A DNA stretch of 64,000 nucleotides from the IMG/VR virus record IMGVR_UViG_3300028840_008157, one strand, 5' to 3'. The notes under the pieces were generated by a model that saw only the letters and a list, made by a program, of their open reading frames with translations, searched no databases and was not told the DNA's origin. Shown here piece by piece: positions 2,956-45,422 of this stretch. The first letter of the stretch is position 1; every line of letters starts with the position of its first letter. Source of the DNA: a virus (taxonomy: Duplodnaviria > Heunggongvirae > Uroviricota > Caudoviricetes). Both the position numbers and the translations under genes were made by a program.

Positions 2956-3215
2956 TCATAGACGCCGCCATGGGATGGAACGCCGATCCGACGTTCGATT
3001 ATGGTCCCGTCGTAGTGATCGGCACGCAGACGTTGCGCCTCGGTCGAGACGCGGCGAAGATTCTGGAGCGATACATCTCCGTCGCCCTGGAACGCAGGTC
3101 GACGCTGCCGTTTGAAAGGTCGGACTTGCTAGAATGGCCTAACACGTGGAGGGAGCACGACCTGCTCCTGCGAAGACTCGAACTCTACGACCCCCATTGG
3201 CGGGTGCCCCGTTAG
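2952..3215 (+). CDS. hypothetical protein
   Basis: ATGA overlap with the upstream stop. Confidence 0.5.
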   Translation: MIIDAAMGWNADPTFDYGPVVVIGTQTLRLGRDAAKILERYISVALERRSTLPFERSDLLEWPNTWREHDLLLRRLELYDPHWRVPR

Positions 3216-4384: not shown

Positions 4385-4870
4385 TTAGGTCCCGTAAACT
4401 TCGAGTCTACGGAGGAACATCCTCGCCGACATGATGGGGAACGCGTTCATGTCCCCATGCAGCAGAAGGCTGGCGATTGCTGATCCTCTCTTGGCAGCCG
4501 CGTGGCAAATCTGGGCTTTGATGACGGGATGGGCGGCGTGAATTCGTTCCGGGTCGCTGGTGCAGATCACCCATCCCAACAGCAACCTCCTTGGATCGTG
4601 GGCCACCATGACGAAGGCTTCCTCGTCCTTGGCGAGGATTTCCCTCAGGACTTTCTTGATCCCCTCGACGAACTCATCGAACTCCTCCATGATGTCCTCT
4701 GGGACTGATCCGCGCCTGGAAATCTCCCGAACCTGACCGGATACCCAAGGTTCTGGCTTGGGAACCGGTCGCCTTGGCTGTGTCCCCCGTTTCTGGCTCG
4801 TCTCTTCTCCGGGTAGCGTTCCGGCGGCCATGGCGGCCGCGCCCCCGGCGATGAAGGTTCTACGATCCAT
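4385..4870 (-). CDS. hypothetical protein with twin-arginine-like N-terminus
   Basis: MDRRTFIAGGAAAMAAG. Confidence 0.7.
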   Translation of the reverse strand: MDRRTFIAGGAAAMAAGTLPGEETSQKRGTQPRRPVPKPEPWVSGQVREISRRGSVPEDIMEEFDEFVEGIKKVLREILAKDEEAFVMVAHDPRRLLLGWVICTSDPERIHAAHPVIKAQICHAAAKRGSAIASLLLHGDMNAFPIMSARMFLRRLEVYGT

Positions 4871-4871
4871 T

Positions 4872-5720
4872 TTACCTCTCTCCTTTCCCCGCTGGGTTAT
4901 CCATCCCGAGCGCCTGCCAGAACTCGTCGGCCGAGCTCTCGCGCCCGTTCATGTATTCCTCCATCTGCGTCTTCGTCTTGACCGGGACGTCGTCCATGTC
5001 GGGGACGCTCTCCATCAGGACGCCCTCGCAGGGTTCCATGACGAAGTCCATGTGTAGCAGCTCGGACATCGGCCTCAGCTTCTCGACCGACCCGTAATGA
5101 CAGGTGGCCGACCACGAGCATTCCATGGGGTTCGTCAGCTTGTTCCCGCATGGCATCTTCTCCACGTCGTACCTCGTCATCCATCCAACGGCCCATGACC
5201 GGCAGAGCTCGGAGTTGTAGACGAAGAAGACGAACCTGTCGGCGGACCCGGCGTCGGATTGCTTGACGATGACGCGGCGCGGGTTGAACTCGCCAAGCGT
5301 CCTTGTGATGACCATCACGTTCCCGAACTTGCGCCTGCCGCCCGATGGGCTGGCGTCCGGGGCGACGCGGTACAGCATCGACAGGCAGAGGTCGGCGGAG
5401 ATGGCCTTCATCTCGGTCTGGACGGACGTGTTCCTGAGCGTCGCCCTCGAGTGGGCGACCGATTCCATGAGCGTCCGGTCCATGGCGCGCCGGATGGCCG
5501 GAGGGGATGGTTCCGGGCCCTCCTTCGAGACGAGGCCACGCATGTAGCTGCGATGCTCCTCCGGCCATGACTTCTTGATGTCATCGATCTGGGACTGGAA
5601 GACCGAGTCGGCCTTGTACTTGAACGTCCCCTTCCGCAGGGAAGCCTCGAGGTTCTTCATGGCCTCCTCGGCCTGGTCCGCGTCCATGATGTGGGTTCCC
5701 TGCTTGTAGAAGTAGATCAT
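4872..5720 (-). CDS. hypothetical protein
   Basis: 282 aa, GGAGG RBS, operon packing. Confidence 0.75.
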   Translation of the reverse strand: MIYFYKQGTHIMDADQAEEAMKNLEASLRKGTFKYKADSVFQSQIDDIKKSWPEEHRSYMRGLVSKEGPEPSPPAIRRAMDRTLMESVAHSRATLRNTSVQTEMKAISADLCLSMLYRVAPDASPSGGRRKFGNVMVITRTLGEFNPRRVIVKQSDAGSADRFVFFVYNSELCRSWAVGWMTRYDVEKMPCGNKLTNPMECSWSATCHYGSVEKLRPMSELLHMDFVMEPCEGVLMESVPDMDDVPVKTKTQMEEYMNGRESSADEFWQALGMDNPAGKGER

Positions 5721-5920
5721 GTCGATCCTCCGCGAATGTTTGACTGATCTGAGACGTATGCCCCGATTCTATGGCCCGGAAAGCGCCCGTCGAAGTACGC
5801 GTCGATGACGGGCTCGAAACGACTGGGCGGGGATTCCTTTCCTCGAGTCTGCCAGTAGTGGACATCCTGCCACAGGGGTGTCTTCTCTATGATGAGTTGC
5901 TGGAAACGGATGGGCCGCAT
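5717..5920 (-). CDS. hypothetical protein
   Basis: 67 aa, ATGA-coupled to the downstream gene. Confidence 0.55.
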   Translation of the reverse strand: MRPIRFQQLIIEKTPLWQDVHYWQTRGKESPPSRFEPVIDAYFDGRFPGHRIGAYVSDQSNIRGGST

Positions 5921-5925
5921 TACGG

Positions 5926-6330
5926 TTACTTCCCCTGAGTCCCGCTACATGATACGGGCTTCATCGGCAAGTCAAGCGATTTCCCGGAAAGCGCCAGCGG
6001 AAGCTTGCGAAGCCGTCCCATCATTTCCTTCACTGGAAGGAAGGCAACCGCCGTCATCTCGTCGCCGATGTCGGGCTCGATGAACGTCGCGTACGGCGAC
6101 TCCGGGATCGTCTCCGACGTCCACCCGGAACACAGGTCGGCCCACCAGTAGAGATCGTCCTCGCCCTTTACCTCGAGGAGGACGATGGTCTTGTGGTGCT
6201 CGGCCCATTCGCGAACCTAAGGCTCGTGACCGTTGCGGAGCATGAACTCCGCAACGGCGTGACAAGCCTGCACGGCCCGCTGGGCCGGGGACAGGTCCGA
6301 CCTGACGAGGACGTACAGTTTCTCGTTCAT
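5926..6330 (-). CDS. Pth2-type peptidyl-tRNA hydrolase with in-frame amber (TAG) at codon 38
   Basis: Manual translation MNEKLYVLVRSDLSPAQRAVQACHAVAEFMLRNGHEP*VREWAEHHKTIVLLEV...FIEPDIGDEMTAVAF...RKLPL; TAG at 6217-6219; ATGA overlap with upstream gene; ends TAA 5926-5928; absent from ORF track. Confidence 0.85.
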
Positions 6331-6674
6331 GAGACCACCGCCATTCCGACGGCCCGGCAAGCCCTCGCGAGGGCGCGAAGTCTACGGAGCGCCCCGTAGG
6401 CGACGCGGCTGGGCCGCTTCGCGTGGTTCCGGAGCAACCCCTCGTCGATCATGGCTTTCACCTGTTCCTTGGTGATCTCCGCGATCTGGTCGGGGTCGTA
6501 GTCGAAGGCCTTCGCGATGGCTTTCTGGGTCAACAACACGGACGCCTTTCGCTTCAACCCGACGTACTCCTTCCACCTGGGGTGGCGGGGGTTGATGAAG
6601 CAGTCCTTCTTGAGCTTGAAGATCGCCATCGAGACGGCCTTCGTCTGCTGGGTGAGGCTGTTCTTGATCGTCAT
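6327..6674 (-). CDS. hypothetical basic protein coupled to the Pth gene
   Basis: 115 aa, AAGGAG RBS, TGA overlaps the Pth ATG. Confidence 0.75.
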   Translation of the reverse strand: MTIKNSLTQQTKAVSMAIFKLKKDCFINPRHPRWKEYVGLKRKASVLLTQKAIAKAFDYDPDQIAEITKEQVKAMIDEGLLRNHAKRPSRVAYGALRRLRALARACRAVGMAVVS

Positions 6675-6747
6675 CTTGTTTCTCCTTCGGTTCTAATAGG
6701 TCCATTTCGATGGACCCCGTTTCAGAAAATGGGGAAAAAGACGACGA

Positions 6748-6774
6748 TCATGGGCCTCGGATCATCTAGGTCAT
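6748..6774 (-). other. SD-led minigene ATG ACC TAG (readthrough product MTxMIRGP)
   Basis: AAGGAGG ending 7 nt before ATG 6774; TAG 6766-6768; TGA 6748-6750. Confidence 0.5.
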
Positions 6775-6776
6775 GG

Positions 6777-7094
6777 TCATTCCTCCTTTCTTTCCTTGAT
6801 CATCTCCAACGCGGTCTCCGCGGACACGTTCCAAAAGTCCATCGCGCCGCTGACCTCGTAGATTTTCTTGACGTGGACCTTCCATGGCCAAAACGGCGCT
6901 TCGCCGCCGCTATTGATTCCGGCGAGTATCCTGGCGTCGTCGTCCTTCTCGTCCTCGAGAAAGTCGATCAGCTCGTCGAGTGATTGGAAGTACTGCGAGT
7001 GGCGGGAGACTTTGTGGCGCGTACAACCGCAATTGCAGGATTCAACTTCGTTGTCTCGGTCATATACGAGGAGGTAGCCGGTTACCTATGTCAT
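6777..7094 (-). CDS. hypothetical protein with amber at codon 3
   Basis: ATG ACA TAG GTA ACC...; 105 codons MT*VTGYLLVYDRDNEVESCNCGC...ERKEE with phage-like codon usage; no other start until codon 85; absent from ORF track. Confidence 0.65.
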
Positions 7095-7101
7095 GTTATT
7101 T

Positions 7102-7177
7102 TGGCGCTTCCGATGGGAATCGAACCCATACGGCCGGGTTTAGAACCCGGTGCTCTGCCTAGTTGAGCTACGGAAGC
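7102..7177 (-). tRNA. amber suppressor tRNA (anticodon CUA), CCA encoded
   Basis: GCTTCCG TA GCTC AACTAGGCA GAGC A CCGGG TTCTAAA CCCGG CCGT ATGGG TTCGATT CCCAT CGGAAGC G CCA; all stems pair, 76 nt, discriminator G. Confidence 0.93.
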
Positions 7178-7197
7178 ACGTCCTCCTTTCGTTATTC

Positions 7198-7226
7198 ATC
7201 TTATACGCCAAAAATATACTTGTCAA
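7198..7226 (-). promoter_or_regulatory. sigma70-like promoter for the tRNA operon
   Basis: TTGACA-17 nt-TAAGAT, with the -10 about 20 nt upstream of the tRNA 5' end. Confidence 0.75.
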
Positions 7227-7686
7227 CCTTTTCGTTTGTTCCTTCCACAGAAGGTTTTTGTTTGCGAATCACAATTGGGACACAGAAAACGAAGGTTTAT
7301 AAGACGATGGTCGTTACGTATCCCATTAACGTGATCCAAACGAAGAACGAGCGACTTGCCTTCCCATACTGGTTGCAGGCCACATGTAGCGCATTCGTAT
7401 TTTAATAGTTTATCTCTGAAAATAACCCTTCGAACCGCGTCCGAGGGCCGCAAGGTCGCCGACTTCCCCGTCCCCGCTCCGGCGGACAAGCTCGCCTTCA
7501 AGGGCTGACCTTACGCCTGCCTGGTCCCCCACCCCCCGCACGGCGGAGGGCGACCTGGCGGGCATCCTGACGGTATCGATAATTGCTTCCGACGATGGCC
7601 CTATTAAGCAATCGTAGTGCATGGGCAATGGAAATGCTGTTCTTGATGGCCGAAATGAAAACGTCGTCTTCTTCCCATCGATTCAT
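7223..7686 (-). pseudogene. disrupted HNH homing endonuclease
   Basis: Low-GC N-term (FISAIKNSISIAHALRLL..GSNY) and C-term (CATC...LRLDHVNGIRNDHRLINLRFLCPNC) in different frames, separated by a GC-rich foreign segment ~7437-7571. Confidence 0.75.
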
Positions 7687-7768: not shown

Positions 7769-7818
7769 TTGACAGTTGAGGTATAAGTAATCTTAGCGAC
7801 GTTGACAGTTGACTGTAA
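7769..7818 (+). promoter_or_regulatory. TTGACAGTTGA direct repeat and dyad upstream of the MerR gene
   Basis: Copies at 7769-7779 and 7802-7812; the second overlaps the dyad acag-ttga-ctgt. Confidence 0.45.
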
Positions 7819-7832
7819 ACATGAGGTGGACG

Positions 7833-10800
7833 ATGAACATCAAGGAAATGGCAGAACTGGCGACCACGATCATCGAGGAGAACATCGGACCGATCAACGT
7901 GGACGTCAGAACCATCAGGTATTACGAGACTTACGGGGTCATGGAGAAACCCCCCAAGAAGGGCCGCGAGAACGATTACGGGATCGAAAACCTCAAGCGC
8001 CTGGTGGCCATCAAGGCTCTCCAGTCAAGGGGCATCAGCCTTGGCCAGATCAAGAAAGAGAACGTAGATGTCGATGGCGTCCTGCGGAGCGTCGGGATCG
8101 ACCCGCTCGTCGTGGGTGCCTTCATCGAGAGGGAAATCGAAGAGTCTCGGGAGAAGCCCGAGAGGGAGGATGACATGAGCGTCAAGGGTCAAGCGGAACC
8201 GAAGAAGGAAAAGAAGAAGGAAAAGGAAGGGGGTTCTCCCTTGATCCTTCCGCCGGAGAAGGACGACAACAGCCTTTCCGTCGAGGTCACGAACCAGATG
8301 ACGTTCATGCCGATGAAGGACCGTCTCTTCGTCGGCTCATCGTTCGCGTTCGTCGACGGGCCGGACGACGAGATATCCAAGCTGATCTACGCCAAGCTAC
8401 ACGGGCAGCTCAAGAAATCCAAGAAGATGAAGCGCGCCGTCATACCCGTGTCCGGGGAGGTCGAGCTTTTGGGATGCGTCGTCAAGGGTGGCCGAGGGAA
8501 TAGAAACCAGCTCGGCGTCCTGGTCCCCGACAAGGACTCCTACAGGGAGGGCGACGACGTCGCCCGCGTACTCGTGTTCGAGCCCGAGAGCAAGGGCAAG
8601 TCCGTCCAGCTCGACGTCAAGCTCAACGGCGCGCCTCTCGACGTGATGAACGTCCCCATCGACGACAACGGCTGCGGCATCGCCCGCGTCCCCACGCTGG
8701 TCGCCGGGAAGTACGAGGTTCACGTGAATGGTAGCGGCGACTGCTCCTTCGAGGCCAGTCGTTACGAGCTCGACCCGCTGACCATCTCGGTTACGGCGTC
8801 CCGCAAGACCCCGGAGGGCATCGAGATCGACCTGTCTGCCGAGCGGTTCGGGAAGCCGATGAAGGGGAAGGCCGAGGTCAGGCTCATCGACGACGGAACC
8901 CCGATCTCCGAGCAGGTGGTCGAGTTCAAGGACGGCGTCGTGACGAGCAAGTGGGACGACCTCGGGGAGGGGAACGCCTCCGTCATGCTGACCCCCGCCG
9001 ACGACAAGTCGCTCATCGCGAGCGCGCCGATACTCGGCTCCAGGAGGGAGGAACGCGAGGACACGACCATCTCCCGCATGGGTCGCGTCATGACGGCGTC
9101 ACTGATGGCCTCGAAGGGCGCCCGTAAAGAGCGCGGCATCTACGTCTCGGAGGAATCCGTGACGAACGCGCCGATCTCGCTGGAGTCCGTCTTCTGCGAC
9201 AATGGAAAACTGAACCTCAAGTTTTCCGCCGACGCGTCCAAGGTGACGGTCGCGGTTTCCGACCCGTCCTCCGGTGAGATCGAGATCTACGACGTCGGCG
9301 ACGTCTCGAAGGGATCCAAGAGGTCGATCAAGGTCAACTCCGCGTTCGCCCTCGTCTCCGTCGGCGCGTTCGTCAAGGACAGGCCGTGGGAGGCCAACGC
9401 GACGGTGATCAACCCGTCGAGGGGCGAGTTCAAGCTGTCGATGCCTGGCGAGGGGTTGTTCGAGCCGGGTGACGAGATGGAGATCGACCTCACGTCCAAG
9501 GAGCCTTGCAGCGTGTTCCTCAAGGTCGTTGACACGCGCGTTAGGGCCATGTACGAGCCCGTGGTGGCCATCGCGTCCAAGGCCAAGTCCTGGTTCTCGA
9601 GGGAGATGCTCGGGCTGCTGACGGGAAACGCGTGGAAGCCCGTCATCGTTGACGGCATGTACCGATACATGAGGGGTTTCACGGGACCGACAGGTCCGAC
9701 GGGTTGGACGGGTTCCTCCGGCGCGAGCGGACACGGCTACCCGGGTGGCCGGCGGCGTCTGTCGCAGGCCAGGGTCATAAGCCGTCGAGGCGCGGTGCCC
9801 TACGACGACGCCATGACGAAGGGCGTTGCCGGATCTCAGGGTTCGTCCGGCGACCCGTCCTACCATGTAAGTTACCACGCGACGCCTGACTCGACCTTCC
9901 TCGGGACGGACGACCACAAGGTCTATGCGGCTTCGCTGGCCCCTCCGGCGGCGAACGCGATGGGCTCCGAGGAACTGACCTCCGGCGGGGGGATTTTCCT
10001 GTGTGACTCGATCAACGTCGAGATGCCAGAGGTCGCCGAGATGGAGTCGAGAAAGTCGGACGCGGACGTCGTCTTCTGCGACCTGCTCCGGGTGCCGAAG
10101 TCGGGGCGCAAGGTCAAGATCAAGCTGCCGGACAGGATCGCCTCGTACGACGTCAAGGCGTTCTTCGTCAGCGGCAACGATTGGTCCGAGGCGGAGGAGA
10201 AGGCCGTCGCCATCAAGCATCTCTACATCGAGCCAATGATCCCGGCCGTCGCGGTCCCAACGGACCAATGCCGCGCCGTGGTCGTCAACGGCAAGGACTG
10301 CGAGGCCATCGTCACGGTAAACGGCGAGAAGGTCGAGATCACGCGCTTCAAGACCCCCGACGGGGCTTCGGTCATGCTGACCTGGGCGGCCCTTCCCGGC
10401 GTTCACGAGGTCGCCGCGACCTACAAGGGACACTCCGACAGGGTGTCCAAGATCGTCGAGCCACCGGGCGAGGAGATCGTCCTGTCCCAGGAGACGCACG
10501 TCATGGCCAAGGGCGAGACGTACGAGCTCGAGGAGGACGCCCTGTCCGCGTACGTGATGCCGGGCCTCGAGGAGGAGCTGGAGACGGTCGTCCACGTGAC
10601 GGTCAACTACGAGCATTGCTGCTGCGAGCAGACGGCGGCCAAGATCGTCGCGGCCTGCGTGGCGGCGACGGTCGGCAACGACGGCGACAAGGCCAAGGCG
10701 TACAAGGCCATCGCCAACGGGCGCGCCCGGCTGAGGAGCCTCTACAACGGGGGCGCCTTCAACTACTATCCTGGGCACGGGGTCAACGCGTGGGCCTCCG

Positions 10801-11684
10801 ACCTGGCCGCGAGGCGCGTCGCCCAAGTCGACGTCAAGGATGCCCCGAAGGACGTCGCCGAGGCTCTCGACGACATCCGCAAGATGGGCGTCTCCGTCGT
10901 CGCCAGCGCCTCGTCCAGCTACCAGAGCGACCTGGAGGCCGCCTTCGCGAAGGGCGACTTCTCGTCCGTCTCGACGACCGACGCGATGACGGCGGCCTCG
11001 TCCGTCAAGGGCGGATCATCGATGGCCATCGCCGACGCCGCCTACGCGGCTTCGTGCCTGCTGCGATCCGGAAGGATCGCCCCGGGCATCCAGGTCGCCA
11101 ACGAGGTCGCCAAGGCCGTGGCCCCCGCGAAGGGGGGAGCCATGTACGGGACGAACGACATGCTCGGCTACCTGATGATGGTCATGTCCCTCTCCGATAC
11201 CGGCGTGATCCCCGCCTCGGGCGGCAAGGTCGTGGTCGACGGGGCGAAGAAGGACGTCGTCGACGCGACGAACGACCCGGCGACGAGGATCGAGGCGACG
11301 GACAATCCCGTGGCCATCCGTATCAACCGCGTCAAGAAGCTGCGGCTCGACGAGGAGACGTCGGAAGTACCGATCGAGGTCAAGCTCGTCGGGGCCAAGG
11401 GCAAGAAGGTGAAGGCCGGCCAGATGGCGCGGCTCGTCGTCCGGACGGACGGCTACAAGGCCGGGGACGTCGTGGTAGTCAGGCTTCCACAAGGACTCAG
11501 CCGGGTCGTCGGTGGAGGCAAGCAGAAGAAGTTCCAGGTCGACTTCGAGGGCAAAAACGAGGTTTCCATCGACCTCGTGGCCCATGAGGCGGCTGAGCAG
11601 CAGATGGGCGTAGTTGTCCGGAACATGTATGACTCGTCGAGGATCGGATCGGCGGGCTTGATCGACGTGAAGGTCGTCGCGTGA
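7833..11684 (+). CDS. MerR-HTH fused alpha-2-macroglobulin-like thioester protein
   Basis: MerR motif VRTIRYYETYG...Y...L..I..LQ.RG.SL.QI; MG2-like PDKDSYREGD; VFLKVVD; KLPDRIASYDVKA; thioester-type CCEQ at 10620-10631; TED-like GRARLRSLYNGGAFNYY; internal GGAGG-ATG at 8175; no signal peptide. Confidence 0.8.
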   Translation: MNIKEMAELATTIIEENIGPINVDVRTIRYYETYGVMEKPPKKGRENDYGIENLKRLVAIKALQSRGISLGQIKKENVDVDGVLRSVGIDPLVVGAFIEREIEESREKPEREDDMSVKGQAEPKKEKKKEKEGGSPLILPPEKDDNSLSVEVTNQMTFMPMKDRLFVGSSFAFVDGPDDEISKLIYAKLHGQLKKSKKMKRAVIPVSGEVELLGCVVKGGRGNRNQLGVLVPDKDSYREGDDVARVLVFEPESKGKSVQLDVKLNGAPLDVMNVPIDDNGCGIARVPTLVAGKYEVHVNGSGDCSFEASRYELDPLTISVTASRKTPEGIEIDLSAERFGKPMKGKAEVRLIDDGTPISEQVVEFKDGVVTSKWDDLGEGNASVMLTPADDKSLIASAPILGSRREEREDTTISRMGRVMTASLMASKGARKERGIYVSEESVTNAPISLESVFCDNGKLNLKFSADASKVTVAVSDPSSGEIEIYDVGDVSKGSKRSIKVNSAFALVSVGAFVKDRPWEANATVINPSRGEFKLSMPGEGLFEPGDEMEIDLTSKEPCSVFLKVVDTRVRAMYEPVVAIASKAKSWFSREMLGLLTGNAWKPVIVDGMYRYMRGFTGPTGPTGWTGSSGASGHGYPGGRRRLSQARVISRRGAVPYDDAMTKGVAGSQGSSGDPSYHVSYHATPDSTFLGTDDHKVYAASLAPPAANAMGSEELTSGGGIFLCDSINVEMPEVAEMESRKSDADVVFCDLLRVPKSGRKVKIKLPDRIASYDVKAFFVSGNDWSEAEEKAVAIKHLYIEPMIPAVAVPTDQCRAVVVNGKDCEAIVTVNGEKVEITRFKTPDGASVMLTWAALPGVHEVAATYKGHSDRVSKIVEPPGEEIVLSQETHVMAKGETYELEEDALSAYVMPGLEEELETVVHVTVNYEHCCCEQTAAKIVAACVAATVGNDGDKAKAYKAIANGRARLRSLYNGGAFNYYPGHGVNAWASDLAARRVAQVDVKDAPKDVAEALDDIRKMGVSVVASASSSYQSDLEAAFAKGDFSSVSTTDAMTAASSVKGGSSMAIADAAYAASCLLRSGRIAPGIQVANEVAKAVAPAKGGAMYGTNDMLGYLMMVMSLSDTGVIPASGGKVVVDGAKKDVVDATNDPATRIEATDNPVAIRINRVKKLRLDEETSEVPIEVKLVGAKGKKVKAGQMARLVVRTDGYKAGDVVVVRLPQGLSRVVGGGKQKKFQVDFEGKNEVSIDLVAHEAAEQQMGVVVRNMYDSSRIGSAGLIDVKVVA

Positions 11685-23079: not shown

Positions 23080-24756
23080 ATGCCTCGCGAGAGCATGACC
23101 GTACTCGTCATCTCTTCCTCAGACGAATCCCGAGAGGCCGCCTACGTCGTCGTCAGCGGCCTGAAGGACAACGGTCATGACGGTCTCATCTGCTGCTCCC
23201 CTGAAGCCGAGACCAGGATCAAGCCCGACCTGAGGCTTGACGAGGAGACGAGCCTCGGCGGCGTCAGCGGCGTCGTCGTCCTTGACGACGGCGGAGACGC
23301 AGAAGCCTGCGCGAAGATCGTCTCGAGGGCCAACAAGGACGACCTCGTCGTGGGCGGCATCGGCCCAGGGTGCCTGATCATGGCGTCCTGCGGCATCCTG
23401 AAGGATCATTACGTTTGCGACGGCCTGCCCGAGGAGGCTTACAAGGGGAAGGGCGTCGAGAAGGTTGAATCCCCTTCCGTCCGCAGCGACACCGTCCTGA
23501 CCTGCTCCGACGTGAGGATGGCCGACGGGTTCCTGTCGCTCGTCATCGACGCGCTCGGAGGAAAGGCCAGGCGCGTGGTCACAGGTGACGACGCTCCGGT
23601 CACGGAGGCGAGCCTCCTCATCGTCGACGACACCTCGGCGTGGCCGGACTACTGGGGCGTCGCGAGGGAACTGGACAAGAAGGGGTGCCGGACGTTCATC
23701 GGGCGCTGGGAGGACGTCGACGTCGCTTCCGGGAGGGCCGGTTGCCTGTCGATGGGCCCAGACGGCGTCAAGACATGCATGACGGTCGGCATCCCCAAGA
23801 CGATATGGTTCAGGCAGCAGATGCCATTGCGCGACGCGGCCTGCGCCGTGTCCGAGCTGGAGTCGCTGGGATGCCGGAACGTCAACTCCTCGGAGTCCAT
23901 CAGGCTCGCCTCGGAGCCCCTTGACGAGCTGCTTGGCGGCGTCGTCGAGGTCGGGAAGCCCGACGAGCAGGGGTTCAAGGTGATCGCCAATCGTGGCGAA
24001 GACGGGTGGAAGGCCGAGGCGCTGGGTGACGTCCGCGAGGCCGTCGAGTCGGCATGCACCGCTTTCCAGTCATCCCTTGACGACCATGACGGCGCGAACA
24101 GCGTCAGCGTCCGGGTGACCCTCCGCGATGACCGCCCCACGATCAACGGCATCGACCCCCTGGATTCGGACATGGCCATCGACGCCCGCGGCGACGACCC
24201 CGTCACGCTCAGGGCCATCGTCGAGAGGGAGATGGCCCACGAGGGGATGTGGCTCCAGCCTGACGGCAGGCTGGCCATACTGGAGGACGGCCACTTCAAG
24301 AGGCTCCCCCCCGAGGAGGCTTTGCTCGACCTCAGGAAGAAGGTCCTGTCCGCCATCAGGAGGGAGATCGAGGAATCCCATCGGGGAAAGGAGGACGTCG
24401 CCATGAAGCGCGCGCGCAGGCTCTCGCGTCGCGCCAGGCACAGGTTCTTCCTCGCCTTCGAGCTGCTGGGCGCCAACGTGACGACGGCGTACGGCCTGTA
24501 CCCGTCCGGAGTCGCCGGACCGTGGGCTCACCTGGACATCCCGATGTTCGAGAGGGTCTTCCAGTGGCAGGAGGGCGACGACTGGCTGAAGGATCGGGAG
24601 AAGGCGATCAGCAAGTTGCCCAGGTACAACCCACAGTACGACTTGCACGGGTTCTACTTCAAGTGGATAGAGCCTAGGAACCTGGCGTACGCCTGGGAGA
24701 ATCGCTTCAACGAAGGGTCGTACCCGATGCGCAACGTACTCAACCTAAACAGGTAG
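23080..24756 (+). CDS. multidomain protein: degenerate DJ-1/PfpI-like plus RimK/ATP-grasp-like N-terminal segment
   Basis: IKPDL.L, VVGGIGPGCLIMA.CGIL, V.SD.VLT; IWFR...LESLG.R.VNSSESIRLA; ends TAG in frame with the next gene. Confidence 0.6.
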   Translation: MPRESMTVLVISSSDESREAAYVVVSGLKDNGHDGLICCSPEAETRIKPDLRLDEETSLGGVSGVVVLDDGGDAEACAKIVSRANKDDLVVGGIGPGCLIMASCGILKDHYVCDGLPEEAYKGKGVEKVESPSVRSDTVLTCSDVRMADGFLSLVIDALGGKARRVVTGDDAPVTEASLLIVDDTSAWPDYWGVARELDKKGCRTFIGRWEDVDVASGRAGCLSMGPDGVKTCMTVGIPKTIWFRQQMPLRDAACAVSELESLGCRNVNSSESIRLASEPLDELLGGVVEVGKPDEQGFKVIANRGEDGWKAEALGDVREAVESACTAFQSSLDDHDGANSVSVRVTLRDDRPTINGIDPLDSDMAIDARGDDPVTLRAIVEREMAHEGMWLQPDGRLAILEDGHFKRLPPEEALLDLRKKVLSAIRREIEESHRGKEDVAMKRARRLSRRARHRFFLAFELLGANVTTAYGLYPSGVAGPWAHLDIPMFERVFQWQEGDDWLKDREKAISKLPRYNPQYDLHGFYFKWIEPRNLAYAWENRFNEGSYPMRNVLNLNR

Positions 24757-24768
24757 CGGGTCATATAC

Positions 24769-27453
24769 ATGATCATCGTCAAGAAGGCAGCGGAAGAGTT
24801 CAAGCCCTTGCGACCGGTTCGCAGGCCGCAAGTCCCGGCGACGCCAACGCCCTTCGAGGAGGAGGAACCCGGCGTCCCGGAGGAATATACCGGACCGTTA
24901 TTGGCCCCGCGGCCGCAGGCCCTCGTCGAGCCAGAACCAGAGATCCCGGAGCCGGCCGAGCCGGAGCCGGAAATCCCGGAGCCGGCCGAAGAGGAACCGG
25001 AAATCCCGGAGCCGGCCGACGAGGAAGGCGTCATGAGGGACGAGCCCGAGCTGCCCCTCGTCGAGAACAAGCCGAAGGTCATCATCAAGTCCCCGACCAA
25101 GCCGGTTCCCTTGGGGACGCCATCTCAAGAGTGGGGATGGGAGAGGAATGATCCAGGAATCGGACAGTCGATGGACGAGGACGAGGAGGAGGAGGAGGAG
25201 TCCCTGACCGACGAGCCGATCGCGACCCCGACGGAGATCACGTCGGAGATGGACGCGATGGGGCTCCACTTGTCTCAGCTTCTCGGCCCGATGAACGAGA
25301 AGAAGGAAGAGGCGATGAGGGCGGGCGGCGACGAGGCGGTGTACGCCCTCTGGGACGACCCCGAGTTCGAGCAGGCGCAGGAACAGGCGAGGTCCCTCAT
25401 AGACAAGATCGTCAACTCCAAGATGGAATTCCAACAGCGGCCAGGCGAGAAGCCTAGGGAGCCCCAGACCGCCGAGGACTACGTCAGGGACAGGCACAGG
25501 TCGCTAATCTCGCTCAAGCAGTCGAAAGGAGTTCCCTCGGAGCAGTTGCAGGAGATACCAGAGGCCGACGACGCCCTGTACGACATGATCATGGCGTTCG
25601 CCGAGAGCGCCCACGAAAACCCCGGGGCGAAGAACAGCCTGACGGCCTACATCATCGCCAACTGGCGCCGGTTCATGGAACCCCCCAATCCGTTCTATCG
25701 CTTCATGAAGTACATCAAGAACCCGAGGACCACGGTCACAGAAGAGGTTCGCAACGAGGGGGCCGAGCGAGGCTGGTCGTGGCCCAGGCAAGTACTCGAG
25801 CAGTACAAGCACGACGCCTGGGGCGACCCGAGCAAGCCCTATTCCCCAGAGGCTATCGAGGAGCGCGTCAGGAAGGGCGCGGAGTGGTGGGAGAAGATGT
25901 ACGAGCGCATCCAGAAGTCGGGCAAGGTGCTTCCCGACTACATGGAGGAGGCGGACCCCATCAAGATCAACCTCAAGAAGATGCCAGATGGCCGTTTCAA
26001 GGGCGATACCGCCGCCATCCGCATCATGTCCGAGGTCTTCGACTTCACGGCGCAATACCACCCCGACCTGGCGGAGGCGCTCGGTCTGATCACGAGGACT
26101 CCGGCCACGCTGAAGAAATATCGTCAGGACGGCGAGTTCGGCATCGACCCGAACAAGGCATTGAATCCGGACGTCCTAGACTGGTGGAACGAGATGTACG
26201 GCAAGATCTCGTCCCGCGTCGAGGGATTGCCCCCCATGAGCCTTTCCCAAGCCTCATCGCGTCAGGACATCGCCGCGATGAAGAAGGCGTTCGACGACTT
26301 CGTCGGGCGATATCCCAAGGAGGCCATCAACCTTGGGATGGCCGACGCCGACGTCATAATCTCGCATCCCTACAAGAGGAAGGGAAGCAAGTATTACATG
26401 TCCGACGAGATCACGGACCCGATCAGGCGCCAGGTCAGCGAGAAGAAGGTCCAGGAAGCCATCGAGTCAGCAGGAAAGACCAAGTCCATGAACGCGGAGG
26501 ACCAGGAAGGAAGGAAAATCCAGGTATCCGAGGAGGACGTCAAGAAGGAGACCGGCGAGCTCGCCGGCCTCGCCGAGGACAAGAAGATCGTCAACCCGAT
26601 GACCATGTTCCGGAGGAAGTACAAGCCGCAAGCCTACGGACCGGACACGCGGAGAAGTCCCAAGAAGAAGTCACGCGAGGACAAGAACAAGACCACCGAG
26701 GCGGGCATACTCTCCGCCGTCTGGGGGCGGCAGGTCGCCCGTGAATTCATGATGGGGAAGGACCTCGAGCGGAGGGTCAAGGCGACGCTCGATCACCACG
26801 TCTCGGACGACGAGCTGCACAACATCATGCTAGAGCACGACATCTCCCGAGCCTACGGGCCGCTGATCGACCTCTACTTCAAGAGGAAGCCGGAGGCGAT
26901 GAAGATCCTAGGCGAGGCCGGTCGCAAGTGGGAGTCCATCAGGCCTTCGTTCTCGATCGGCGCCACGCCGGAGGCCATCGAGAGGGAGACGAAGCGACGC
27001 CAGGCGGCGCTCTCGATCATCGCCGATCACGTCACGACGCCGAAGAGCGTCGAGAGGGAGATCGCCAAGACCATCGCCGGGATGCCCCTCGAGCGTGGCG
27101 GCTCGGGCGGATTGTACAAGCCGGAGCACATGGTCAACAAGGAGCTCGGCGAAAAGAACGCGCTGGAGAACGTGGCCACGATGAACGCCCTGTTCGAGCG
27201 GCTCCGGTCCAAGTTCCAGGGGCGCGGAGAGTCCAGGGGGCACGCGCTGAAGAAGTTCAACGACGCGGTCCGAGAGGTGGTCGGCAGGATGATAGGCGCC
27301 CTCGCCAACGACGACACGTTCGCCAGGATCGAGCGCGACCTCAGGAGCAAGGGATTCAATCTGAGGGGCGGATCATGGAGGTCCGCGCTCATGTCGCACC
27401 TGCGCATCGTCCGGTTCGCCCTACGAGGGCTCATGATGGAGAAGGTGTCATGA
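24769..27453 (+). CDS. large hypothetical protein with Pro/Glu repeats
   Basis: 894 aa, strong codon bias. Confidence 0.8.
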   Translation: MIIVKKAAEEFKPLRPVRRPQVPATPTPFEEEEPGVPEEYTGPLLAPRPQALVEPEPEIPEPAEPEPEIPEPAEEEPEIPEPADEEGVMRDEPELPLVENKPKVIIKSPTKPVPLGTPSQEWGWERNDPGIGQSMDEDEEEEEESLTDEPIATPTEITSEMDAMGLHLSQLLGPMNEKKEEAMRAGGDEAVYALWDDPEFEQAQEQARSLIDKIVNSKMEFQQRPGEKPREPQTAEDYVRDRHRSLISLKQSKGVPSEQLQEIPEADDALYDMIMAFAESAHENPGAKNSLTAYIIANWRRFMEPPNPFYRFMKYIKNPRTTVTEEVRNEGAERGWSWPRQVLEQYKHDAWGDPSKPYSPEAIEERVRKGAEWWEKMYERIQKSGKVLPDYMEEADPIKINLKKMPDGRFKGDTAAIRIMSEVFDFTAQYHPDLAEALGLITRTPATLKKYRQDGEFGIDPNKALNPDVLDWWNEMYGKISSRVEGLPPMSLSQASSRQDIAAMKKAFDDFVGRYPKEAINLGMADADVIISHPYKRKGSKYYMSDEITDPIRRQVSEKKVQEAIESAGKTKSMNAEDQEGRKIQVSEEDVKKETGELAGLAEDKKIVNPMTMFRRKYKPQAYGPDTRRSPKKKSREDKNKTTEAGILSAVWGRQVAREFMMGKDLERRVKATLDHHVSDDELHNIMLEHDISRAYGPLIDLYFKRKPEAMKILGEAGRKWESIRPSFSIGATPEAIERETKRRQAALSIIADHVTTPKSVEREIAKTIAGMPLERGGSGGLYKPEHMVNKELGEKNALENVATMNALFERLRSKFQGRGESRGHALKKFNDAVREVVGRMIGALANDDTFARIERDLRSKGFNLRGGSWRSALMSHLRIVRFALRGLMMEKVS
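24928..25020 (+). repeat. 30-bp coding tandem repeat x3 (EPEPEIPEPA)
   Basis: EPEPEIPEPA EPEPEIPEPA EEEPEIPEPA. Confidence 0.85.
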
Positions 27454-41876: not shown

Positions 41877-41993
41877 CCGTTCGAGTCGCGCCCCTTACGG
41901 TCGCGCGGATTGAAACGAGTAGGAAAACGCGCCGTATGATCTGAACGTGTAAGTATGGAAGTGTGAAGCCTTTTATAGGAGAGGGAATTGACC

Positions 41994-44900
41994 ATGAGGT
42001 TCATTGGAAACATCGAGTCCGCCATGGATGCGCTGAAGTCGTCCAAGACGGGCGCCCCGTCGGGAACCCCCCAACGCAACGTCGTCACGAACGCGCCGTT
42101 GCCTAACTCGGCGTTCGCCCAGAGCGCGGCGGCGTATACCCCTTCGCGGGTCAAGACGGCGCAGGTGTCCGGCAACGTCATCTACACGCAGCCTTCGTTC
42201 TTCAGCCCGCTGCACACGCCGCAGAACTGGCAAATCCCGACCAAGCGCCGCGAGGTATACCAGTGGTCGTTCGTAAACGGCGACAAATTGATGACCAATG
42301 ACGGAACTTACAAGTGCATTTCAAAAATAGTCGAAGGTGACAAGCTGGTTACCCATACGGGCGAAGTCCAGACGGTTGACAAGAGGACTTCCAGGATGGT
42401 GGATACGGACTTGTTCTCCGTATCTTACGACGGTCATTACCTTCGAACCAGGCTCACTCGAGGCCACAAGGTATACGTCCTCCGCAGGGAGGACGTCCTT
42501 TGCAAGTATAGCAACAGCGGTTGCAAGATGGCCTCTCGTTACTGCGATTCAAACAACCTGCATTACATGTGCCGAAGGACGAAGTGCAAACGACACGAGG
42601 AAAGAGAACTCGTTCCGGAACTGGTTCCCGTGGAGAACATCAAGGAGGGGGATTTCGTTTATACCCCGTCTATGATCTCCGACAAATCATCATCCAGCAT
42701 ACCTACCATTGATCATGCCAGGCTGCTCGGATACTACTGCGCCGAGGGATGCCTTTTGGGCAAGACGGGCGTATGCTTTACCTTTGGAATCCACGAGGAA
42801 ACATTCGCCAATGAAGTTGTAGCCTTGGCGACAAAATGCTTCGGAACCGAGGTCAGGAAAACAAGAATCGCAAAGCATCCCGAACGCGGAACGTGCGACG
42901 TATTCGTTAATTCGAACAGTCTGAACGCCTTTTGCCATGAGCATTGCGGGAGCATGGCGACCAAGAAGCGGCTTTCCGTCGGACTCATGACGTCAAGCCG
43001 CGAAATCCAATTGAACTTCCTCGCCTCTTATTGGAACGGGGATGGATGCCAGAGTTTTACGAAAGGAAATCATGGAAGGGTCGATTTCAGGACGTCGTCC
43101 ATGTTTCTCTCTGAACAAATCCAATCCCTCTTGTCCATGTGCGGATATCCGTCAAGGTGCAGTTTTTCGAGGACCAAGAACAACCACAAATCCATGGTCC
43201 ACAGGCAATCCAAGAAGCCGTTCTTCGATTGCTACACCGTATCTTTTGGGGCGAGCGCGGGAGGAGACTTCTTTGACCTGTGCGGTGCCGACGTTGGCTC
43301 CCAGAAGGGAAGGAAGTCAAGCGTCAGGCTCGTCTCCGGAATGTTACTGAGACGCGTCAAACGCGTTTCCTCGAAACCCTACAAGGGGAAGGTATACGAC
43401 GTTCGCGTCCCTGGGAACTACTCGGTCGTTTGCAACGGCATAGCCGTGGCCCAATGCCGCTACTACTACGAAAATGAACCCAAGGTCGCGTCGGCGATAG
43501 ACTTCTACAGCCACTTCGCCATCAACGGGTTCGAGACCCAATGCGAGCATCACGCGATCAAGCGGTTCTTCGACCAGCTCAACAAGAAGCTCAACCTGGA
43601 TTACTGGGCGAAGCTCATTTCCAAGGAGTACTACATGCTCGGGGACGTGTTTCCGTTCCTCGAGATCGAGTGCCAGAAGTGCCACGGGGGCGGCTTCACC
43701 GATAGCGGTAAGGTTTGCCGCCACCCCGGCGGATCGTTCAGGCGTCTCGTGGTCCTCAACCCGGACTGGATCGACGTCCAGACCAACGTCATGGTCGACG
43801 ACCCGATCATCACGCTGCTCCCGGACGACGAATTGAAGAAGATCGTCTGGCGCAAGCAGCCCAAGGCCATCTACGACAGGCTCCCGACGAACGTCCGGGC
43901 TCTGATCCTGGCCAACCGGCCGATCCCGCTGTCCAACGAATGCGTGTCGCACCTGCGGCACAACCCGTACCCCTACGGGACGTACGGCGTGTCGCTCCTG
44001 AGAAGGCTGTTCAAGACGCTCGCCTACAAGGACAAGCTGATGTCGGCGCAGTGGATCATCGCCGAGCGCATGATCCTGCCCGTCCGCGTCGTGAAGCTCG
44101 GCGACTCCGAGCGTCCCGCCGGGCCGGCCGACATCGCCGACGTCCAGAACCAGCTCGCGAACGTGGTGAACGACCCGAACCTGACGCTGGTGACCCACCA
44201 TGCGTTCAACTACGACTGGATCGGGACGAGCGGCAAGGTCCTCCAGCTCTCGAACGAGTACGAGCTGATCGACAAGGAAATCCTCCAGGGTCTCATGATC
44301 AACGAGGCATTGCTATCAGGAATGATGGGAAGTTATCAGTCAGCCGCCATCGGCGCCGAGGCCATGATCCAGCGGATGGAGTCGTGGAGGCTCGAGCTGG
44401 CCCGATGGATCGAGGATCGCATCTACAAGCCGGTCGCCCAGATGAAGGGCTTCGTGGACGAGGCCGCCACCAAGGAGGTAGGCGAGCCCGTTTGGATCTA
44501 CCCGAAGATCCAATGGAACGAGCTCAACATCCGCGACGACAGCCAGCAGAAGCAGTTGCTCAACTCGCTCTTCGACAAGGGTCTCCTATCGGGCCAGTCG
44601 TTGCTCGAGAAATACGGGCTCGACTACGACCACGAGATCGAGCGCCTGCGGTTCGAGTCCGCGACCCAGAAGCTCGCCGGGATGGCCGGCGCGGGCGGCG
44701 CGGGCGGCATGATCGGCGGCATGGGCGGCGGAGCTGGCGGGGGCATGGAGGGCTTGTTCGGCGGAGGCGGGGCGCCCGCTGGCGGACCGGAGATGGGCGG
44801 CGCCCCGGAGATGGGCGGCGCGGACATGGGAGGCGCCCCGGCGGCCCCGGCCGCGGCGGCCGGAGTAGGGGGCACGTCTGGCAAGATACTATCCAAGGGC

Positions 44901-45422
44901 CGCAAGCCCATGGGCCAGGTTCCGGACGAGGCCGACATCCAGCCGGTAACCGTGAGGCTGACGTCTCTCGAGTCGCTGATGTACAAGGAAATCTCCGCGA
45001 TGAAGCTGCCGTTCGCGGTCGGCGTCCAGCAGCAGATCGGCCCGTACGTGGCCGACTTCTGCATCCCGATGCTCAAGATGGACATCGAGGTCGACGGCGC
45101 GTACTGGCACAACCAGCCCGAGACCAAGGCGCACGACGAGATTCGGGACGACGAGATGTCACGGGCGGGCTGGACGATCCTAAGGTTCGGCGAGTCCGAA
45201 CTAAAGGAGCGGCTGCCAGAGGTTCGGAAGACTATATTGGCGTACGTCCACAAGAACTGGCGTCGCGCCATCGAGGAGCAGAAGCGCCAGACGAAGGCGT
45301 TCGACGAGGCGTCTCTGCGCATGACGAAGATATCGGGCGAGACGGAGGAGGTGTCGCCCGTCATCGAGCCGGAGGTCGACGGTGGCGATTCCGATCAAGG
45401 AACGGGGAATCCGGTGGGTTGA
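41994..45422 (+). CDS. portal protein with intein and C-terminal DUF559/Vsr-like nuclease domain
   Basis: Extein junction REVYQW/CRYYYENEP.V.SAID; HLRH.P.PY..YG.SLLRR; Gly/Met linker; YVADF...IEVDG.YWH...D..RD....GW.ILRF. Confidence 0.8.
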   Translation: MRFIGNIESAMDALKSSKTGAPSGTPQRNVVTNAPLPNSAFAQSAAAYTPSRVKTAQVSGNVIYTQPSFFSPLHTPQNWQIPTKRREVYQWSFVNGDKLMTNDGTYKCISKIVEGDKLVTHTGEVQTVDKRTSRMVDTDLFSVSYDGHYLRTRLTRGHKVYVLRREDVLCKYSNSGCKMASRYCDSNNLHYMCRRTKCKRHEERELVPELVPVENIKEGDFVYTPSMISDKSSSSIPTIDHARLLGYYCAEGCLLGKTGVCFTFGIHEETFANEVVALATKCFGTEVRKTRIAKHPERGTCDVFVNSNSLNAFCHEHCGSMATKKRLSVGLMTSSREIQLNFLASYWNGDGCQSFTKGNHGRVDFRTSSMFLSEQIQSLLSMCGYPSRCSFSRTKNNHKSMVHRQSKKPFFDCYTVSFGASAGGDFFDLCGADVGSQKGRKSSVRLVSGMLLRRVKRVSSKPYKGKVYDVRVPGNYSVVCNGIAVAQCRYYYENEPKVASAIDFYSHFAINGFETQCEHHAIKRFFDQLNKKLNLDYWAKLISKEYYMLGDVFPFLEIECQKCHGGGFTDSGKVCRHPGGSFRRLVVLNPDWIDVQTNVMVDDPIITLLPDDELKKIVWRKQPKAIYDRLPTNVRALILANRPIPLSNECVSHLRHNPYPYGTYGVSLLRRLFKTLAYKDKLMSAQWIIAERMILPVRVVKLGDSERPAGPADIADVQNQLANVVNDPNLTLVTHHAFNYDWIGTSGKVLQLSNEYELIDKEILQGLMINEALLSGMMGSYQSAAIGAEAMIQRMESWRLELARWIEDRIYKPVAQMKGFVDEAATKEVGEPVWIYPKIQWNELNIRDDSQQKQLLNSLFDKGLLSGQSLLEKYGLDYDHEIERLRFESATQKLAGMAGAGGAGGMIGGMGGGAGGGMEGLFGGGGAPAGGPEMGGAPEMGGADMGGAPAAPAAAAGVGGTSGKILSKGRKPMGQVPDEADIQPVTVRLTSLESLMYKEISAMKLPFAVGVQQQIGPYVADFCIPMLKMDIEVDGAYWHNQPETKAHDEIRDDEMSRAGWTILRFGESELKERLPEVRKTILAYVHKNWRRAIEEQKRQTKAFDEASLRMTKISGETEEVSPVIEPEVDGGDSDQGTGNPVG
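42267..43454 (+). mobile_element. 396-aa intein with LAGLIDADG homing endonuclease, atypical termini (Ser1, Ala-Gln C-terminus, Cys+1)
   Basis: SFVNGDKLMT.DG..K.I..I..GD.L.TH.G; block B LTRGHKV; LLGYYCAEG and FLASYWNGDG; Y.GKVYDVRVPGNYSVVCNGIAVAQ/C; lower GC than flanks. Confidence 0.9.

Follow-up and report, generated by a model that had tools for sequence, protein, structure and literature searches.

The DNA analyzed here, referred to as the window, is a 64,000-nucleotide stretch of the virus record IMGVR_UViG_3300028840_008157 (Caudoviricetes). Its minus strand contains, between positions 7226 and 5926, a small operon in which a transfer RNA (tRNA) with the stop-reading anticodon CUA precedes three reading frames interrupted by TAG. 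In the direction of transcription, the locus comprises a predicted promoter, the tRNA gene, a 105-codon frame (ORF105), a leader peptide, a 115-residue protein (ORF115), and a gene with the fold of peptidyl-tRNA hydrolase 2 (Pth2). The surrounding record is linear, 110,972 bases long, has a G+C content of 61%, and is estimated to be about 67% complete; profile matches identified portal and capsid genes in it. The locus was the subject of a preliminary description made from the sequence alone, and all coordinates given there agree with the sequence.

The CUA tRNA and the interrupted frames

The tRNA gene (7177-7102, minus strand) encodes a canonical 76-nucleotide cloverleaf with the discriminator base G73 and an encoded CCA end. 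Its identification as a complete tRNA was upheld by ARAGORN and by a match to Rfam RF00005 (66.7 bits), and it is the sole tRNA found in the 110,972-base contig with default ARAGORN settings. The intact cloverleaf, the seven-nucleotide loop UUCUAAA, U33, and A37 provide the anatomy of an amber suppressor tRNA. A pyrrolysine tRNA would have a 6-base-pair anticodon stem, a short D-loop without GG, and no T-psi-C. This identity was rejected, since the tRNA of the window has a 7/4/5/5 cloverleaf, GG in the D-loop, and the sequence UUCGA, and "Pyl" is the label that ARAGORN gives to the anticodon CUA. Among 64 CUA tRNAs, the discriminator base is G in 20, A in 20, U in 19, and C in 5, and the acceptor stems also vary freely. 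Because the acceptor identity is variable, sensing of one particular amino acid seems improbable. The residue inserted at UAG is presumably glutamine or lysine, judging from the behavior of suppressors with U35; it is not inferable from the homologs, whose alignment columns with internal TAGs are variable.

The tRNA is preceded by a predicted sigma70-like promoter (TTGACA-17-TAAGAT, 7226-7198, minus strand), which is present as first described and matches the consensus at 10 of 12 positions. Promoter-like sites of this quality occur three times in 3.7 kb, versus a mean of 1.2 after shuffling, so the match is weak taken alone. The promoter is located in the 3'-terminal part of an HNH endonuclease gene (7686-7223, minus strand; PHROG 10822, E=1e-26) that is broken by a GC-rich segment of ~125 bp (7563-7439). 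This segment is a higher-depth repeat node common to other contigs of the sample and may represent a real insertion or an assembly join. The sequence GAAAGGAGGA is located at 7190 and 6790 (minus strand), directly before the tRNA and before the leader, and has three copies in the contig. Possibly, the tRNA arrived together with ORF105 as an insertion separating the promoter and Shine-Dalgarno (SD) sequence from the leader.

ORF105 (7094-6777, minus strand) starts with M-T followed by TAG at codon 3 (7088-7086, context TAG-GT), as had been reported. The part beyond the TAG scores as coding, with a phage codon score of +21 and a G+C content at third codon positions of 0.75, while the other five frames all score negatively; the next in-frame start is ~81 codons further on. 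Support for the frame by the distant homologs P0032 and P0034 is limited to the part starting at about residue 19, and phmmer returned four matches, one of which is a 1267-residue repeat-like protein. A locus search with ORF105 gave no match, a metagenome search two spurious matches, and the Atlas no usable match. The TAG of ORF105 may act as a gate, as its context suggests. The stop codon of ORF105 overlaps an ATG located upstream of the leader and in frame with it (ATGA, 6780-6777).

The leader (6774-6748, minus strand) has eight codons and reads M-T-TAG-M-I-R-G-P-TGA, with the TAG at 6768-6766 and the SD sequence AAGGAGG upstream. Among sites of the form ATG-NNN-stop, a strong SD sequence precedes 1 of 13 with TAG, namely that at 6774, 0 of 35 with TGA, and 0 of 8 with TAA. 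A genome-wide scan for SD-led TAG leaders returned the same single match. The preliminary description was right about the SD-led ATG ACC TAG at this position but regarded it as a minigene, whereas the frame runs past the TAG to M-I-R-G-P-TGA. The TAG-interrupted frames are ORF105, the leader, and the Pth2-like gene; ORF115 (6674-6327, minus strand) has no TAG of its own. ORF115 is a small basic helical protein, and its stop codon overlaps the start of the Pth2-like gene (ATGA). It belongs to the partner family B', which is common to the closest relatives (L001, L002, L004, L404, and L409). ORF115 has no Pfam or PHROG match, and a single-sequence locus search was also empty. Comparisons with partner family B, which is the commoner one, detected no homology (HHalign probability 0.2%; Atlas).

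The Pth2-fold gene (6330-5926, minus strand) is split by TAG at codon 38 (6219-6217, context TAG-GT), in agreement with the earlier observation, and matches PF01981 (E=2.9e-6; 27.9 bits, cut-off 23). The fold predicted for residues 1-115 with the TAG read as Gln has a pLDDT (predicted local distance difference test) of 94.5. Its best structural matches are Pth2 enzymes; Foldseek matches include the Pth2 structure 2zv3 (E=1.1e-6, template modeling score 0.72), and Pth2 entries lead the 13 matches at E<=0.001. Codon 38 is the start of the second helix of the predicted fold, so that termination there would remove three of the four strands. V20, Q21, H24, E85, and T93 are invariant over 74 sequences. 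Relaxed selection beyond the TAG, which would have marked the gene as a pseudogene, is not indicated, since consensus residues downstream of the TAG are kept at 0.82 in 13 TAG-bearing genes and at 0.86 in 61 TAG-free genes. This motif retention was used in place of the ratio of nonsynonymous to synonymous substitution rates, for which no close DNA relatives were found. A single-sequence locus search with the Pth2-like protein gave no match.

Gene ends in the contig, identified with a rough gene caller, are TGA in 46, TAG in 31, and TAA in 20 of the 97 genes. The sequence past the TAG ends does not score as coding, except where a second gene continues in frame. Because 31 genes stop at TAG, genome-wide TAG recoding (code 15) was ruled out; the standard code is used, as previously argued, and only the operon of the tRNA and the Pth2-like gene is gated. 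No gated structural or lysis gene was found in the ~67%-complete contig, in line with the absence of internal TAGs from the long structural genes noted in the preliminary description. When the genome was scanned outside called genes for TAGs with 40 or more coding codons behind them, three candidates emerged, namely ORF105, the Pth2-like gene, and a weak 45-codon frame that possesses its own ATG. Contigs of two runs are identical to the window over 4800-7493 at ~28-30x depth, but the runs (X1 and X2) seem to be one data set filed twice, possibly the source of the window, and their agreement is not independent. Pieces from X3 and X4 among the matches listed do not span the TAGs. The TAG is at the same codon in the relatives L001, L002, L003, L404, and L409, which argues against an assembly error.

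Anticodons and gates in related phages

An alignment search identified 104 confirmed viral loci with a Pth2-like gene, of which the best 80 were kept. A stop-reading tRNA is located within 4 kb of the gene in 74 of the 80 loci (CUA in 59, an eight-base UUCA loop in 13, UCA in one, and UUA in one), and among the remaining six, two have a weaker loop of the UUCA-like type and one has an odd tRNA. The next commonest anticodon occurs near the gene at 9 of the 80 loci. The control gene of the same window, encoding dCMP deaminase, has a stop-reading tRNA at 1 of 75 loci, and that locus holds the module. In the reverse test, which covers the first 80 of 119 tRNA pattern matches (seven of them neither CUA nor Arg-UCU), the gene is present within 4 kb of 9 of 34 CUA tRNAs, one of the nine loci being a contig already in the set, versus 0 of 39 Arg-UCU tRNAs. 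GTDB yielded 15 loci from 185,579 genomes, mostly on phage-like contigs, and 13 of them contain a stop-reading tRNA. The co-occurrence of TAG and CUA tRNA holds across homologous loci and supports the original idea of a local, self-contained circuit in which a phage tRNA gates an operon rather than the whole genome. The gene in front of the Pth2-like gene usually encodes a small basic partner, and one cluster of such partners holds 55 of the 80 loci. Partner family B, which matches neither Pfam nor PHROG families, forms fusions with the Pth2-like domain in, among those listed, L032, L035, L051, L075, and L078.

Upstream of the partner gene, most loci contain a short ORF of the form M-x-TAG-(V/I)-, which ends with RGPP, KPP, RPP, or similar. 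The end is RGPP in 25 of 51 leaders, and most others end with (R/K/H)x(0-1)PP. Gates were counted in 73 non-identical genes, including 56 CUA loci and 10 UUCA loci. At least one TAG gate is present in 50 of the CUA loci (a TAG leader in 38, an internal TAG in 11, and an N-terminal TAG in 12), and none of them has a TGAA leader. A TGAA leader, with RGPP in the +1 frame, is present in 9 of the UUCA loci, the tenth being incomplete, and none has a TAG leader. Locus L062 combines a UCA tRNA with a TGA leader. In control windows, the TAG leader pattern was found in 4 of 1306 and 8 of 1163, and the TGAA pattern in 2 of 1306 and 2 of 1163. The leader pattern recurred in loci found after it had been fixed (L198, L201, L309, L335, L404, L405, and L406). 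The order in L404 is tRNA, gated ORF, gated leader, partner, and gated hydrolase, with three gates as in the window. The internal stops of Pth2-like genes are TAG in 12 of 12 cases and occupy eight variable alignment columns, counting that of the window. The ochre anticodon UUA occurs together with a TAA-gated leader ending with RGSP or RGPP in the TAG-recoded phage Lak-A1 (L086, 2239-2520) and in L406, a contig of a metagenome-assembled genome.

Eight-base UUCA loops were observed in L008, L016, L028, L031, L045, L046, L056, L059, L065, L068, L309, and L335. At these loci, apart from the incomplete L008, a four-base step at Leu/Phe-TGAA is needed for the leader to reach RGPP. The leaders of L070 (CUA, TAG) and L046 (UUCA, TGAA) are clearly homologous. 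The UUCA tRNA may either pair with four bases or slip and read GAA. Most matches of a blind UUCA scan were Glu tRNAs or non-tRNAs; the gene was present at 3 of 80 loci, all with TGAA leaders and one of them a contig already in the set, and three tRNAs with clear eight-base loops lacked the gene within 4 kb.

The TAGs might serve no regulation at all if a leaky suppressor were kept for some other reason and the TAGs were tolerated nonsense mutations or, in the leader, part of a bar-type minigene. The internal TAGs indeed sit in variable columns, and bar minigenes provoke peptidyl-tRNA drop-off, as described in the accessible part of PMC8012679. However, the gated TAGs are confined to the operon and have the context TAG-RT in 46 of 61 cases, versus 3 of 31 true TAG terminators of the contig. 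The gates also precede a conserved arrest motif and a helix that occludes a ribosome-binding site (RBS), and they change with the anticodon, the four-base step included. This covariation largely refutes an absence of regulation, which we consider highly improbable. From the sequence comparisons, we conclude that the phage tRNA very probably gates the operon.

The Pth2-like gene is also present in 206 mycobacteriophage records and in Lak records. A CUA tRNA is located 250 nt downstream of the gene in Catera and 130 nt downstream in Myrna; RefSeq labels these tRNAs Arg and Ser. In both phages (L081 and L082), the sequence ATG/GTG-TAG-GTG is located immediately upstream of the annotated Pth start, just before position 3001. 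The site is 6-7 nt past a TACxGT box, and TTGACA is located 18-19 nt before the box. The arrangement may represent a leaderless start with a gate at codon 2, but the annotated GTG could also be the true start. An HD-domain-like ORF starting with M-K/T-TAG is present in L085 (RAS14; 2449) and in L026. In RAS14, it is fused to the Pth2-like domain, and the CUA tRNA is distant in the genome.

The leader peptide and the predicted attenuator helix

The RNA between the leader and ORF115 is predicted to form an attenuator helix (6750-6665, minus strand), in which positions 6750-6734 pair with the SD sequence and AUG of ORF115, and which includes an inner hairpin (6716-6699). The folding energy of 6790-6660 is -39.9 kcal/mol (z -2.89), a value reached by 0 of 200 shuffles. 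With a ribosome footprint assumed to span 15 nt upstream and 12 nt downstream of the A-site codon, the computed cost of opening the RBS of the window is 19.8 kcal/mol with the ribosome at the TAG versus 3.5-3.7 kcal/mol at Pro/UGA. The resulting drop of 16.1 is above those of all 40 shuffles (maximum 9.2). For 47 homologous leaders with a definable next start, the median cost decreases from 9.2 to 3.9 kcal/mol. The decrease exceeds 2 kcal/mol in 41 of the 47, the shuffle mean in 45, and the maximum of six shuffles in 39. According to these computations, a ribosome located at the arrest motif would disrupt the structure that occludes the RBS.

A pause is predicted at the RGP-stop end of the leader. 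In several contexts, RGPP and RAPP act as robust arrest motifs that are refractory to elongation factor P (PMC12992588, accessible part), and the accessible part of PMC12856214 cites work whose title names stalling at a C-terminal proline. The Pro codon of the window is outside the helix, which favors a role at the level of the peptide. A lambda bar minigene, consisting of a start, one sense codon, and a stop, was ruled out by the conserved continuation to RGP/PP past the TAG. The drop-off role of the lambda bar type previously suggested for this element is not upheld, since the element opens a conserved leader, predicted to be of the arrest type, in front of an RBS-occluding helix. The leader and the helix together probably function as an attenuator.

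The ermC leader is an arrest-type translational attenuator. The module resembles arrest-peptide attenuators such as SecM-secA, MifM-yidC2, ApcA/ApdA/ApdP, and those with RAPP/RGPP in the upstream ORF, which ends with RGPP in many relatives and with RGP-stop in the window, and in the predicted opening of the RBS (PMC12992588, accessible part). The input of those systems is secretion force or a drug, whereas here it would be a stop codon decoded by a co-encoded tRNA, and the leaders have ~8-25 codons. A term search of the accessible text of PMC12992588 found no mention of phages.

Proposed mechanism and relation to known systems

We consider it moderately probable, taking the whole account together, that the locus encodes a suppressor-gated translational attenuator, which would report the charged suppressor versus the release factor and induce a back-up operon for hydrolysis of tRNA esters. 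As the first element of the operon transcript, the tRNA would undergo processing and receive an amino acid from a host synthetase, and the identity of this amino acid seems irrelevant. Termination at the UAG in codon 3 of the leader would leave the helix over the SD sequence and AUG of ORF115 closed. A ribosome that reads through the UAG is predicted to pause at R-G-P-UGA, cover the 5' arm of the helix, and expose the start of ORF115. ORF115 would then be produced, and the Pth2-like gene would follow by ATGA coupling, with a second readthrough required at codon 38. ORF105 would be an extra third gate upstream. Because of the three serial gates, the output should climb steeply with suppression. 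In the least certain step, the level of charged suppressor relative to the activity of the release factor would serve as the signal, and the induced product would provide back-up release of peptides from tRNA.

The same attenuator might instead act as a negative-feedback homeostat, in which the Pth2-like protein and its partner deacylate or inactivate the suppressor and thereby spare the TAG-ended genes. The hydrolase would be produced only when suppression happens, its altered active-site residues could mean a changed substrate, and nearly a third of the genes (31 of 97) terminate at TAG. However, the sole other gated frame is ORF105, so that the tRNA would exist mainly for being switched off, and the acceptor ends of the tRNAs offer no common identity element to an enzyme. 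We regard the homeostat as unlikely. A timing switch with positive feedback, whose products would raise the charging or maturation of the suppressor and cause delayed, steep readthrough as a precursor of full recoding, seems quite improbable. It agrees with the three serial gates in the window and in L404, with the occurrence of the gene family in Lak records, and with the proposal that suppressor tRNAs of recoded phages were acquired first and used for timing (10.1101/2021.08.26.457843, accessible part). On the other hand, the 111-kb contig (~67% complete) shows no gate in any structural or lysis gene, and the hydrolase fold gives no hint of charging. Lak-A1, despite its TAG recoding, retains the module with a TAA gate and a UUA tRNA, which indicates that the module is separate from recoding.

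Equally improbable is a sensor of host anti-translation defence (a tRNA nuclease or deacylase, or an attack on release factors or the ribosome) that would induce a counter-defence pair. The operon is small, composed of translation-related parts, and nearly confined to phage-like contigs, and an attack on release factors would be expected to increase readthrough. The loss of the tRNA, however, would shut the operon off and not turn it on, which is the wrong sign for a sensor of tRNA attack and renders this proposal of the preliminary description doubtful. Returning to the suppressor-gated attenuator, the acceptors are variable, the TAG columns tolerant, and all three stop codons used; the constant element is the competition between tRNA and release factor, which favors a gauge of termination capacity. 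We tentatively suggest that the module may be a widespread circuit, in which a private stop-reading tRNA would gauge the termination capacity of the host and induce a two-protein, release-factor-independent release of peptides, and which would have been re-keyed among UAG, UGA, UAA, and the four-base UGAA.

Several points weigh against the attenuator account. There is no Pth2-like gene within 4 kb of 25 of the 34 viral CUA tRNAs, a fixed search identified no gate in 6 of the 56 CUA loci, and a distant sister family (PBECO4, Aeh1, and KpS8) has no nearby tRNA or CUA-pattern match. The loci are kin to one another, so the Fisher p of 7e-10 for gate versus anticodon is overstated. A tree of 23 rows needs five switches between CUA and UUCA, and 0 of 200 bootstrap trees manage with one, but a single clade is not rejected (p-AU 0.057). 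The leader of the window ends with RGP-stop and not RGPP, and the tested arrest motifs come from much longer peptides. An ATG directly follows the TAG of the leader, so re-initiation could bypass the second gate. The Pro-Pro codons are mostly CCT-CCN, the first Pro being CCT in 22 of 25 RGPP leaders; this sequence is also anti-SD, so that in the relatives its conservation may partly reflect RNA pairing. The leader motif pattern was chosen after the leaders had been seen, and the ribosome footprint was assumed. For expression, charging, readthrough, stalling, and the sensed signal, the account relies on sequence and computation.

The active site raises a further objection. The phage protein shares with archaeal and eukaryotic Pth2/Bit1 (PF01981) the fold, the motifs R-x-D-L and Q-x-x-H-A, the W, and an acidic residue at the Asp position. 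Unlike them, it lacks the lysine of the G-K motif, which is present in all five solved Pth2 alignments among the matches listed, and it is accompanied by a partner gene. The Lys position is occupied by Gln in 43 and Tyr in 31 of 74 sequences, the Thr position by Gly in 43, Asn in 15, and Asp in 10 of 74, and the Asp position by Glu in 74 of 74, so that D-A-G-x-T of solved Pth2 enzymes corresponds to E-P-D-x-G in the phage family. Because the canonical Lys is replaced, canonical Pth2 activity is putative. The catalytic triad of P. horikoshii Pth2 is Lys-Asp-Thr, although it could not be confirmed from papers. The phage protein may resemble the PTRHD1-type subfamily, the activity of which was likewise not confirmable from papers. 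The accessible parts of PMC3488237 and PMC13023423 did not settle the catalytic residues of Pth2. The protein is Pth2 by its predicted fold, and its peptidyl-tRNA hydrolase activity is putative and unproven.

The prfB gene, encoding release factor 2, is controlled by an autoregulatory +1 frameshift at an internal UGA. In prfB, and as proposed for the module, termination versus continued translation at an internal stop controls a translation-related gene, and a +1 step at Leu/Phe-UGA is likewise predicted for the UUCA variant. However, slippage in prfB is SD-assisted, whereas the module would use a dedicated tRNA and control an operon via the leader. The eight-base loop for a four-base codon, present in 13 of the 80 relatives and not in the window, is shared with quadruplet or frameshift suppressors of the sufA/sufD type and with engineered quadruplet tRNAs. 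Those in the accessible part of PMC9094753 are individual or engineered tRNAs, whereas the eight-base loop of the module varies together with a natural UGAA target that is itself conserved. That text names individual natural frameshift suppressors but points out that quadruplet codes are absent from nature.

The suppressor tRNAs of recoded phages (code 15; crAss-like and Lak) similarly permit TAG-containing genes by a CUA tRNA (10.1101/2021.08.26.457843, accessible part), but the putative targets here are three frames of the tRNA's own operon and not structural or lysis genes. A term search of the accessible text of that survey found no mention of a hydrolase. The Xanthomonas phage XacN1, known to us from the accessible part of PMC5852040 alone, is a standard-code jumbo phage with CUA tRNAs and a peptidyl-tRNA hydrolase, and its authors found no target for the CUA tRNAs. 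The module described here differs in supplying targets of a kind that gene callers overlook, namely TAGs at codon 2 or 3 and tiny leaders. A literature search, which stopped short of supplements and most subscription papers, found no account of the module or its four-base variant. The module is real and conserved, and it probably represents an apparently unpublished form of attenuation by a leader peptide that responds to a new input.

The module offers concrete targets for about a quarter of viral CUA tRNAs (9 of 34 in the blind sample), and the sequence associations make it likely to explain many phage suppressor tRNAs. It is a common phage operon that gene callers miss or shorten, and a self-encoded stop-reading tRNA is a new input for attenuation by ribosome stalling. 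The UUCA/UGAA pairs of the relatives would provide orthogonal four-base decoding of natural origin, useful for expansion of the genetic code, and the four-base re-keying, if true, would be a natural case of regulation by programmed quadruplet decoding. The module is also a possible route by which phages retain a suppressor ahead of genome recoding. Since Catera and Myrna carry both the gene and the CUA tRNA, it is directly testable in mycobacteriophages.

Outside the operon, two long genes at 23080-27453 (plus strand) share a frame and are separated by a TAG and four codons, which makes a readthrough fusion possible, although the stop is found in the context TAG-CG and an ATG is available at the start of the second gene. 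The gene at 7809-11684 (plus strand) encodes a 1287-residue protein with an N-terminal MerR helix-turn-helix and alpha-2-macroglobulin-like and Ig-like parts. The Mu-like portal gene at 41988-45422 (plus strand) has weak Hint, LAGLIDADG, and DUF559 matches and probably bears an intein.

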